Shown here: one piece after another, positions 55,276 through 55,410 of the stretch
Numbering within the stretch: position 1 is the first letter of the stretch
Layout of the letters: the number at the start of each line of letters is the position of its first letter
Source of the DNA: a virus
Strand: one strand, 5' to 3'
IMG/VR virus record: IMGVR_UViG_3300045988_016718
Length of the DNA: 64,000 nt
Notes under the pieces: model-generated
Seen by the model: the letters and a program-made list of their open reading frames with translations, nothing else
Database searches by the model: none
Told to the model about the DNA's origin: nothing
Program-made: the position numbers and the translations under genes

Positions 55276-55410
55276 TGGGGGTGAAAGGACTCGAACCTTT
55301 ATAAGATAGTTTTACAAGACTATTGTGTCAACCGAAGTAACTCTTACTAACCACTACTGTTTTACCAGAGAACATTTGTAAGAGTGTTGTGTTTATTGCA
55401 CCACACCCCC
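55276..55410 (-). tRNA. tRNA-Thr(UGU)-like gene interrupted by a 60-nt structured insert in the D-loop, with an 8-nt anticodon loop
   Basis: Hand fold in minus sense: acceptor GGGGGTG/CACCCCC+A; D stem GTG(C)/(A)CAC with loop AAT[insert]CGGTTG; anticodon stem ATAGT/ACTAT with loop CTTGTAAA; variable CTTAT; T arm AAAGG-TTCGAGT-CCTTT. The total is 135 nt versus ~75 nt without the insert. Confidence 0.65.
55335..55394 (-). ncRNA. module copy M1 (insert within the tRNA-Thr-like D-loop)
   Basis: AAACACAAC-ACTCTTAC-AAATGTTCTCT-GGTAAAACAG-TAGTGGTTA-GTAAGAGT-TACTT. Helix Ha ACTCTTAC/GTAAGAGT is a perfect 8 bp. The boundaries are inferred by subtracting the tRNA cloverleaf. Confidence 0.6.

Follow-up and report, generated by a model that had tools for sequence, protein, structure and literature searches.

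The window analysed here, a stretch of 64,000 nucleotides (nt) from the IMG/VR virus record IMGVR_UViG_3300045988_016718, comes from a crAss-like, Kehishuvirus-related phage. On its minus strand it carries a 135-nt tRNA-like gene, gene 2 (55410 to 55276), which has a complete cloverleaf with an additional module in the D loop between U16 and G18. Gene 2 is probably a chimera of a Y RNA and a tRNA, belonging to the YrlA type but with a new topology in which the acceptor is open, the anticodon arm is intact and the module is placed in the D loop. This arrangement is not described for the YrlA-type family of Y RNAs in the searchable literature. The gene lies downstream of a TROVE/Ro60-like gene and in the same orientation, its helices are conserved with covariation among related phages, and its module is continuous with phage RNAs that are recognised by the Rfam model for YrlA. 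What the RNA might do, as a tether or as a decoy, is considerably less certain than what it is.

The purpose of the tRNA-like domain in bacterial Y RNAs is an open question (PMC4201824; bioRxiv 10.1101/312249). The conservation of Y RNAs and Ro60 extends from bacteria to humans, and the question becomes testable here in a tractable lineage, which includes the culturable system of phage crAss001 and Bacteroides intestinalis. The window is about 72% identical to Bacteroides phage crAss001 at the nucleotide level in this region.

Structure and conservation of gene 2

Read in the transcribed direction, gene 2 is GGGGGUG UG GUGC AAU [60-nt insert] GGUUG ACAC A AUAGU CUUGUAAA ACUAU CUUAU AAAGG UUCGAGU CCUUU CACCCCC A. 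The acceptor stem (GGGGGUG/CACCCCC) has 7 bp and is followed by discriminator A, and CCA is not encoded. The D arm has the stem GUG(C)/(A)CAC and continues with A14, A15 and U16, then the 60-nt insert and then G18 and G19, so that the D loop amounts to about 68 nt counting the module, compared with about 7-11 nt in a canonical decoding tRNA. The anticodon arm consists of a 5-bp stem (AUAGU/ACUAU) and an 8-nt loop, CUUGUAAA, at 55318..55311; the variable region is CUUAU, which makes a Levitt pair A15:U48 possible, and the T arm is AAAGG-UUCGAGU-CCUUU. The acceptor, the T arm, the anticodon stem, the 8-nt loop and the insert between AAU and CGGUUG had already been described in a sequence-only reading of the window, and all of them are correct, on the minus strand. 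The gene matches the Rfam tRNA model (RF00005) end to end (model positions 1-71) with 40.8 bits, where the gathering score is 29 (E 3.4e-5 in a search of the 64 kb). ARAGORN called neither of the two interrupted tRNA-like genes in the window.

In the minimum free energy (MFE) fold, at -37.5 kcal/mol (z = -2.97), gene 2 forms the cloverleaf and a separate irregular hairpin of the insert, which appears as a plain hairpin between single strands. The insertion site at U16/G18 falls in the length-variable alpha region of the D loop. An L-shape with the module as a fifth arm can plausibly form, because the nucleotides for tertiary interactions are kept (U8, A14, G18G19, U54-U55-C56 and the 15:48 pair) and because the insertion points coincide with the length-variable alpha and beta regions of the D loop.

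The conservation of the gene was followed in 55 related loci (numbered with L), retrieved from IMG/VR with the TROVE protein of the window. Two separate contigs, L003 and L004, whose TROVE proteins are 97% identical, carry a 135-nt gene that is 100% identical to gene 2, and in L005 and L050 a homologue with 98.5% identity has the same 8-nt loop CUUGUAAA. The 8-nt loop reported in the sequence-only reading is thus present in five sequences, and the concern that its A4 run might be a homopolymer sequencing error is probably unfounded because independent assemblies carry the same gene and loop.

An alignment of 17 distinct homologues of gene 2 (A2) shows that all four tRNA helices and both helices of the insert are kept. 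Standard pairs occupy 95.8% of the base-pair cells, and compensatory changes are found in 18 of the 34 pairs, spread over all six helices. The covariation score is 0.467, which is reached in none of 500 shuffles, and controls with slid partners give at most 0.12. By this comparison, gene 2 is under structural selection and is not a decayed pseudogene, since compensatory changes maintain every helix. A decaying tRNA without function, a worry raised in the first reading, would agree with the absence of an ARAGORN call and with the non-canonical D loop and anticodon loop. It is nevertheless highly improbable, given that the helices are maintained in 17 or more distinct sequences and that tens of phage genomes have kept the gene.

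In the 55 related loci, no allele of the tRNA-like genes lacks the insert, which accompanies the gene in every case. The distance from the tail of the module to the junction with the tRNA varies between 0 and 6 nt, and the junction position between 28/29 and 29/30. A third class of paralogues (class 3) occurs in relatives, with the module after G18G19. Among class-2 genes in L006, L007, L012, L015 and L021 (about 4260-4590), the module variants GAGUGUUCUCCCGAAGGGG and CAAUUGUUCUAUGGAAGCAU occur with the 3' cassettes in all combinations. Because module variants and 3' cassettes (anticodon arm and T arm) are combined so freely, the comparison indicates within-gene recombination among co-circulating phages.

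The module and its place behind the TROVE gene

The presumed protein partner matches the Pfam TROVE domain (E 4.5e-13), and vWA_Ro60 at 3e-5 but below the Pfam cut-off (24.5 vs 27.7 bits). It also matches PHROG 850, annotated as 'RNA-binding protein' (4.5e-35), and its best PDB sequence match is Ro60 of Thermus phage phiLo (9KOP/9L5Y, E 1e-14, residues 73-460). It is 78% identical to gp96 of crAss001, and there the gene is followed by an unannotated gap of about 900 nt with the same RNA layout as in the window. The gene for gp96 belongs to the early genes of crAss001 (PMC8375218). A search with the TROVE protein in genome contigs gave only two contigs of metagenome-assembled genomes, which were uninformative.

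The non-coding stretch of about 1 kb directly downstream of the TROVE gene contains five copies of the module, all of them between the TROVE stop codon and a strong terminator (55149-55118). The cluster begins 74 nt past the stop codon, and gene 2 is placed 666 nt downstream of it on the same strand. Two copies are hairpins inside tRNA-like genes and three are stand-alone, circularly permuted and shaped as Y RNAs. A covariance model of the hairpin form (R1) was run without filters over the 64 kb. The features of the region, in the order of transcription, are:

57485 to 56076, minus strand: TROVE/Ro60-like gene of 469 amino acids, the open reading frame (ORF) immediately upstream of the cluster
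55917..56002, minus strand: M-a, stand-alone Y-shaped module, an inverted repeat; MFE -24.4 kcal/mol, z -3.05
55829..55903, minus strand: M-b, second stand-alone copy of Y type, from repeat families; fold -19.2 kcal/mol, z -1.89
55676..55823, minus strand: tRNA-like gene 1 ('Lys-like'); Rfam tRNA 48 bits, R1 60.2 bits
55411..55675, minus strand: spacer of 265 nt between genes 1 and 2; no Rfam match
55276..55410, minus strand: tRNA-like gene 2
55332..55386, minus strand: module in gene 2; R1 70.5 bits, E 6e-14
55152..55270, minus strand: M-e, fifth copy, of Y type, from the half-motif scan; fold -28.8 kcal/mol, z -2.62
55108..55149, minus strand: intrinsic-terminator-like hairpin with a 14-bp stem followed by TTTTTGT, closing the cluster

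The module is built up by a helix of 8 bp (P1), a conserved internal loop (AAAUGUU on the 5' side, UG and four further nucleotides on the 3' side), a second helix with a bulged U (P2) and a single-stranded tail, UUACUUC(AA). In gene 2, P1 pairs 55385-55378 with 55347-55340 and the internal loop is AAAUGUU // UGGUUA; P2 pairs 55370-55366 with 55359-55354, with the bulged U at 55356 and the loop GUAAAA, and the tail UUACUUC (55340-55334) is followed by G18G19. In M-a, as in all three stand-alone copies, P2 is formed by the two ends of the RNA and P1 is capped by a loop starting with UUACUUCAA, which is the classic shape of a Y RNA. M-e begins 5 nt past gene 2 and has P2 as GGAAGU/ACUUCU and P1 as UAGUGG/CCACUA, and M-b ends 5 nt ahead of gene 1. 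Gene 1 also has an open acceptor stem, and its hairpin-type module (55790..55719) branches from the anticodon stem; the gene amounts to a YrlA-type RNA in circularly permuted form.

The same module therefore sits at two tRNA positions in genes 265 nt apart, as had been noticed in the first reading (gene 1 at 55823..55676). In the window and the other phages taken together, the module is seen in the D loop on either side of G18G19, as a branch of the anticodon stem, in stand-alone RNAs and flanking permuted tRNA domains. To call it a portable RNA element and not a conventional position-specific intron was right in an evolutionary sense; what the sequence-only reading missed is the context of a Ro60 gene and the probable identity with a Ro60-binding module of YrlA type. 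The spacer between the two genes is polymorphic in length within one species-level lineage, with about 31 nt in L004 and L050 and about 260 nt in L003 and L005.

In an alignment of 43 distinct copies of the module (A1), pairing is maintained in 93.4% of the cells and 9 of 13 pairs have compensatory changes. The covariation is 0.558 compared with 0.20 in shuffles, none of which reached the observed value (0/500), and slid partners give at most 0.135. RNAalifold independently recovers P1 and P2. The G-U pairs of the module fit only the minus, transcribed strand, and therefore the constraint acts on RNA. Promoter or iteron repeats acting at the level of DNA were considered for the module and are ruled out by the compensatory changes in the helices together with these strand-specific pairs.

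The R1 model finds only three significant matches in the 64 kb, all within 55332-55942 on the minus strand. Among the related loci it gives 115 matches, every one of them on the TROVE strand and downstream of TROVE, and they are present in 50 of the 55 loci. The most divergent crAss-like TROVE loci (L042-L044 and L057, with 67-69% protein identity) have no recognisable module downstream of TROVE; a weak match to UGGUG...ACAUACCUC is all that is seen there, and any Y RNAs of these loci have diverged too far or lie elsewhere. In one crAss-like clade (L023, L028-L030, L033 and L035, about 3855-4015), a T-arm-like hairpin, CACAGG UUCGAGU CCUGUA, follows the first stand-alone module past the TROVE stop codon, so that the first Y RNA of the clade keeps part of a tRNA domain.

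Several copies at different positions in neighbouring genes could also be produced by a selfish mobile element that invades tRNA genes, such as a mini-intron, a self-cleaving ribozyme or a repeat resembling a miniature inverted-repeat transposable element. The module has no match to a ribozyme, an intron or a known small RNA family in Rfam at E <= 10 in 55100-56200, and 60 nt is too small for the core of a group I or group II intron. Its copies are confined to one intergenic region of the 64 kb and to the flank of TROVE in 50 of 55 loci, no target-site duplications are seen, and the insertion positions are orthologously conserved across relatives. There is consequently next to no room for a mobile element as the explanation.

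Excision would be another fate for the insert. A protein-dependent mechanism could cut and ligate the transcript to yield a normal tRNA of about 75 nt, with TROVE marking the site, a 2H phosphoesterase healing the ends and a ligase sealing them. Removal of the insert restores a canonical D loop in gene 2 (AAU joined to GGUU) and a perfect 5-bp anticodon stem in gene 1, and the window has a gene for a tRNA_lig_CPD-like 2H phosphoesterase 2.6 kb upstream, a gene that at least 16 related loci have as well. The variable junctions and the lack of insert-free alleles argue against it, and so does the absence of a bulge-helix-bulge motif. Three of the five copies are outside any tRNA, and in other phages the motif flanks permuted tRNA domains, which no splicing could turn into a tRNA. 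A scan of 18 window ORFs turned up no RNA ligase, crAss001 has the chimeras but not the 2H gene, and the loop of gene 2 would still have 8 nt after removal. Excision is thus quite unlikely.

The phosphoesterase is a 154-amino-acid ORF (60088-60552, minus strand) next to a canonical tRNA-Arg(CCU). It matches Pfam tRNA_lig_CPD (E 1.7e-8), the 2',3'-cyclic phosphodiesterase domain of fungal tRNA ligase, and has the two HxTx motifs that are a hallmark of 2H phosphoesterases. Homologues lie upstream of TROVE in the related loci that have them. A PDB search gave no informative sequence match and a PHROG search no match, and the scan of 18 window ORFs also gave no polynucleotide kinase. The protein could be an enzyme that heals RNA ends or an Acb1-like phosphodiesterase acting on cyclic nucleotides.

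Relation to YrlA-type Y RNAs

The module most likely corresponds to the Ro60-binding module of YrlA-type Y RNAs, with a variant sequence, because its motif flanks permuted tRNA domains in other phages, these RNAs score with the Rfam YrlA model, the permuted gene 1 is collinear with them and the motifs form a graded series. The other phages were found by a pattern scan of IMG/VR with a gapped 3' half-motif of 15 bases (AGTG..AGAGTTACTTC). Single hits are mostly due to chance, so that the scan is not a clean test of association and its hits are informative only once filtered for TROVE and for loci with multiple copies. A TROVE ORF was found in 17 of 120 retrieved loci, and 11 of these 17 are not crAss-like but come from unrelated phages, on contigs of about 30-255 kb. 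Of their TROVE proteins that tblastn detects, most are 26-39% identical to that of the window.

In the TROVE loci that are not crAss-like, a circularly permuted tRNA-like domain lies between the two motif halves. It consists of a T arm, an acceptor stem closed by a loop (for example GAAA) and then a D arm, which is the architecture of YrlA as described in PMC4201824. The Rfam YrlA model (RF02553) matches the permuted phage elements over their full length with 29-56 bits, below the gathering threshold of 69 bits, with E values down to 2e-10: L097 has 52.7 bits (E 4e-9), L128 has 37.1 bits (E 7e-7), and L070, L175, L120 and L106 have 29-40 bits. In the Rfam alignment of these related phage RNAs, UAGUG takes the Ro60-binding position GNCGAA, and UUAC that of the conserved YUAY. 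When gene 1 is permuted in silico, by a cut in the P2 loop and closure of the acceptor, it becomes collinear with the natural YrlA-type RNAs and is 72% identical over 132 nt to the RNA of L128, despite an identity of only about 28% between the TROVE proteins of L128 and the window. Gene 1 also keeps the D arm of YrlA type, UAGCUCAGU..GGUAGAGC.

Cultured phages have similar loci. Xanthomonas phage Tenjo (L180, 1850-2440), Caulobacter phage CcrColossus (L181, 1450-2400) and Rhizobium phage RHph_Y65 (L182, 1140-2300) each have, immediately upstream of TROVE, an array of 4-6 YrlA-like RNAs that is not annotated; the RNAs score 30-56 bits with the YrlA model. Their motifs are graded from CGAA through UGGCG and UGGUG to UAGUG, and the tail GGUUACUUC is common or nearly so (some copies have GGAUACUUC). 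A 'tRNA-Gln' annotated in CcrColossus (L181, 1619-1686) lies inside the array and looks like a part of a Y RNA.

A third topology is seen in L120 (about 2106-2255) and in L171 (minus strand, near a ATAGAGTTACTTC motif), where a full cloverleaf is nested in the P1-capping loop of a Y-type module and has an acceptor, a D arm, an anticodon arm with a 7-nt loop and a T arm. Chimeras of the D-loop type also occur in the large unrelated phage contigs L068 and L107. A YrlA-like fold across the two genes of the window, formed by the 3' half of gene 1 and the 5' half of gene 2, was considered as well; the acceptor strands pair in the window, but on inspection only 5 of 7 positions do so in crAss001, and the fold was dropped because the pairing is not conserved.

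Anticodon loops, possible role and known systems

The class-2 genes have at least seven different anticodon loops on essentially one backbone: CUUGUAAA (8 nt), UUUGGGU (UGG), UUAGGGA (AGG), CAGUAAA (A33), UUUGUAA (UGU), CUGGUAA (GGU) and UUCAUGGU (8 nt). The 8-nt loop CUUGUAAA is confined to the lineage of the window (the window, L003, L004, L005 and L050). Three lineages have loops of 8 or 9 nt and another has A33, and loops of the UGG, AGG, UGU-like and GUA-like kinds share a single acceptor stem and body. The corresponding hairpin loop of gene 1 is CUUUUAA in the window, has 9 nt in crAss001 and other sequences in other relatives. In class 2, the 3' cassette and the module variant have been reshuffled among phages. 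This suggests that the anticodon loop is either weakly constrained or under diversifying pressure.

In class 3 the loops read GAU, GGU, CAU and AUU. Two of the seven variable columns outside the module in five near-identical class-3 RNAs are anticodon positions 34-35, with three states each (Fisher p = 0.023, in a small sample). For the anticodons GAU, GGU and CAU, synthetases read mainly the anticodon.

A separate array in crAss001 contains canonical tRNA-Lys(UUU), Pro(UGG), Thr(UGU), Ile(GAU), Met(CAU) and Glu(UUC). The chimeras are 63-73% identical to any of these tRNAs with no preference for the cognate one, and a derivation from the isoacceptor tRNAs of the phage itself is ruled out by these identities. 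The same early region of crAss001 has a tRNA-like gene with an anticodon of four bases (taat) according to both ARAGORN and the record, where it is marked as pseudo (101478-101568; L178, 48798-48889); its anticodon loop is a further non-canonical one, and no equivalent was called in the window.

A dedicated role of the chimeras in decoding or frameshifting is unlikely, because the loops differ among close relatives, crAss001 has canonical tRNAs and the bodies are not copies of them. The proposal of +1 frameshifting, made from the 8-nt loop in the sequence-only reading, does not fit close relatives whose loops, on the same backbone, have 7 nt with UGG, AGG, UGU or GGU, a different sequence of 8 nt, or 9 nt. 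In its broader form, this explanation describes a working decoding tRNA with a permanent extra arm, which is charged and used, reads Pro, Thr, Ile or Met codons in relatives and acts as a +1 frameshift or quadruplet reader in the lineage of the window; binding of Ro60 might then protect or regulate it. The cloverleaf with all its tertiary nucleotides (U8, A14, G18G19, U54U55C56 and A15:U48), the free acceptor stem with discriminator A, the placement of the insert in D-loop regions that tolerate variation in length, the canonical 7-nt loops of most relatives and the exchange of GAU, GGU and CAU among near-identical RNAs would all be expected of such a tRNA. The loops of 8 and 9 nt, the A33, and the shared acceptor stem and body under UGG, AGG, UGU-like and GUA-like loops would not, and neither would bodies unrelated to the cognate tRNAs in a phage lineage where the same anticodons are found on canonical tRNAs of crAss001. 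Conservation of the 8-nt loop ends at one species-level lineage. Furthermore, a 55-nt helix at the elbow, probably with a ring of about 53 kDa, should clash with the ribosomal sites that contact the elbow. We regard a decoding tRNA as improbable, though a less distant prospect than excision.

As a chimera of a Y RNA and a tRNA, gene 2 would instead form a stable ribonucleoprotein and would not be a splicing precursor, the module most likely not being spliced out. By analogy with known Ro60 and Y RNA biology, the phage Ro60 would bind the module, which would be a handle for loading the Ro60 ring onto a tRNA-shaped RNA. The tRNA body may engage a partner that recognises tRNAs, and candidates are RNase P and RNase Z (in processing of a polycistronic precursor), enzymes of tRNA modification or a host factor reading the anticodon loop. 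The outcome might be that Ro60 is tethered to a tRNA-binding partner, or that the RNA is a decoy for factors reading anticodon loops. The suggestion in the first reading that altered phage tRNA loops evade anticodon nucleases may survive in this modified form, as a decoy. The gaps of 5 nt between M-b and gene 1 and between gene 2 and M-e might let RNase P and 3'-end processing free the neighbouring Y RNAs from one precursor. Tethering of Ro60 to an effector by Y RNAs is known from other systems (PMC4201824; bioRxiv 10.1101/312249; PMC12135203).

A more specific and tentative version, which we think of as speculative, is that the chimeras are anticodon-programmable baits, with the Ro60 ring on look-alikes of tRNAs, or alternatively charged tRNAs escorted by Ro60. 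Point mutation and recombination of 3' cassettes would rapidly exchange their loops to match host tRNAs that are attacked or read by anticodon nucleases or by other tRNA-directed defences, and the ribonucleoprotein might capture, block or help to repair the attack.

Several observations weigh against the identification of gene 2 as a chimera of YrlA type. The Rfam YrlA model finds no match in 55100-56200 even at E <= 10; the link to YrlA runs through intermediate sequences and a permutation in silico, and the module has UAGUG where characterised YrlA RNAs have GNCGAA (PMC4201824). Gene 2 has a free 7-bp acceptor stem and a discriminator, whereas characterised Y RNAs end in the Ro-binding stem. 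YrlA of M. smegmatis receives CCA, and charging of the RNA of gene 2 is possible. Most relatives keep anticodon loops of 7 nt that look canonical (Y32, U33, R37), and the variation in class 3 suggests that the anticodon matters to something, possibly decoding. The locus L020 lacks both tRNA-like genes, which are dispensable at least in some contexts. Binding of the TROVE protein to the module, and an RNA that is made and stays unspliced, are predictions. In L020 itself (3880-4010), TROVE and two Y-type modules are retained, and the deletion apparently lies between copies of the module, if the assembly is correct.

The chimera would represent a new form in the family, with a Ro60-binding module on a complete, un-permuted tRNA whose anticodon arm is intact and fast-changing. 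Across the phages, the module is joined to a tRNA in every possible way: permuted, nested, as a branch from the anticodon stem and as a branch from the D loop. This variety bears on the proposal that Y RNAs originated from tRNA transcripts. The chimera genes and the Y RNA arrays adjacent to TROVE in phages are unannotated, or mis-called as tRNAs, in public records. If the chimeras are baits or charged tRNAs escorted by Ro60, the tRNA-like domain of Y RNAs would have its first concrete function, and the most abundant family of human gut phages a new class of counter-defence. Gene 2 itself is of interest both to the field of Ro60 and Y RNAs and to that of phage tRNAs.

Comparison with known systems shows partial similarities. 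Frameshift suppressors of the sufJ type share the 8-nt anticodon loop in a UGU-like context with gene 2, but the size of the loop in gene 2 is not conserved among orthologues and there is an arm of 60 nt in the D loop. Intron-containing tRNAs (bacterial group I introns in the anticodon loop and archaeal bulge-helix-bulge introns at non-canonical positions) are likewise tRNA genes interrupted by extra sequence, and in Thermoproteales related inserts are found at different tRNA positions. Gene 2, on the other hand, has neither a catalytic core nor a bulge-helix-bulge, its junctions are variable, and the same element is found outside tRNAs and always beside TROVE.

Searches of the literature for crAss together with Y RNA, Ro60 or TROVE, and for YrlA, rendered no description of these chimeric forms, although a prior mention in reviews is possible. 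A preprint speculates that tRNA genes beside a Ro60-like gene in phage Bas63 might be Y RNAs (PMC11482910). Thermus phage phiLo, with Yrl1 and Yrl2, also encodes a Ro60, the one that is the best PDB match of the window protein, and experiments show that it binds the phage Y-like RNAs encoded next to its gene and assembles with host PNPase (PMC12135203). The description given there of Yrl1 and Yrl2 is of Y RNAs with a stem-bulge-stem form and a CGAA motif, not of tRNA chimeras (PMC12135203).

In published Y RNAs the 5' and 3' ends lie in the Ro-binding stem, which replaces the anticodon arm in YrlA and extends from the acceptor position in Yrn1 (PMC4201824; bioRxiv 10.1101/312249). Yrn1 of Deinococcus radiodurans is similar to gene 2 in that its tRNA-like part has the order D, anticodon and T with an 'anticodon arm' of 5 bp (PMC4201824), and Yrn1-like nesting with a full cloverleaf is found in the phage elements L120a and L171. 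In Yrn1, however, the Ro stem continues from the acceptor position and the loop has 6 nt, whereas the module of gene 2 is a side arm of the D loop and the acceptor ends are free. The similarities to YrlA (RF02553; Chen et al. 2014, PMC4201824; Wang et al. 2018, bioRxiv 10.1101/312249) are a gene beside Ro60/TROVE on the same strand, a Ro60-binding helix, internal loop and helix (putatively so in gene 2) combined with a tRNA-like domain that has a D arm, a T arm and tertiary nucleotides, a conserved YUAY (UUAC in the window) after the binding module, and several Y RNAs per locus. YrlA ends in the Ro-binding stem, has its acceptor-like stem closed by a loop and has no anticodon loop, whereas gene 2 has an open acceptor, a full anticodon arm of 5 bp and, within the D loop, the module as a closed hairpin.

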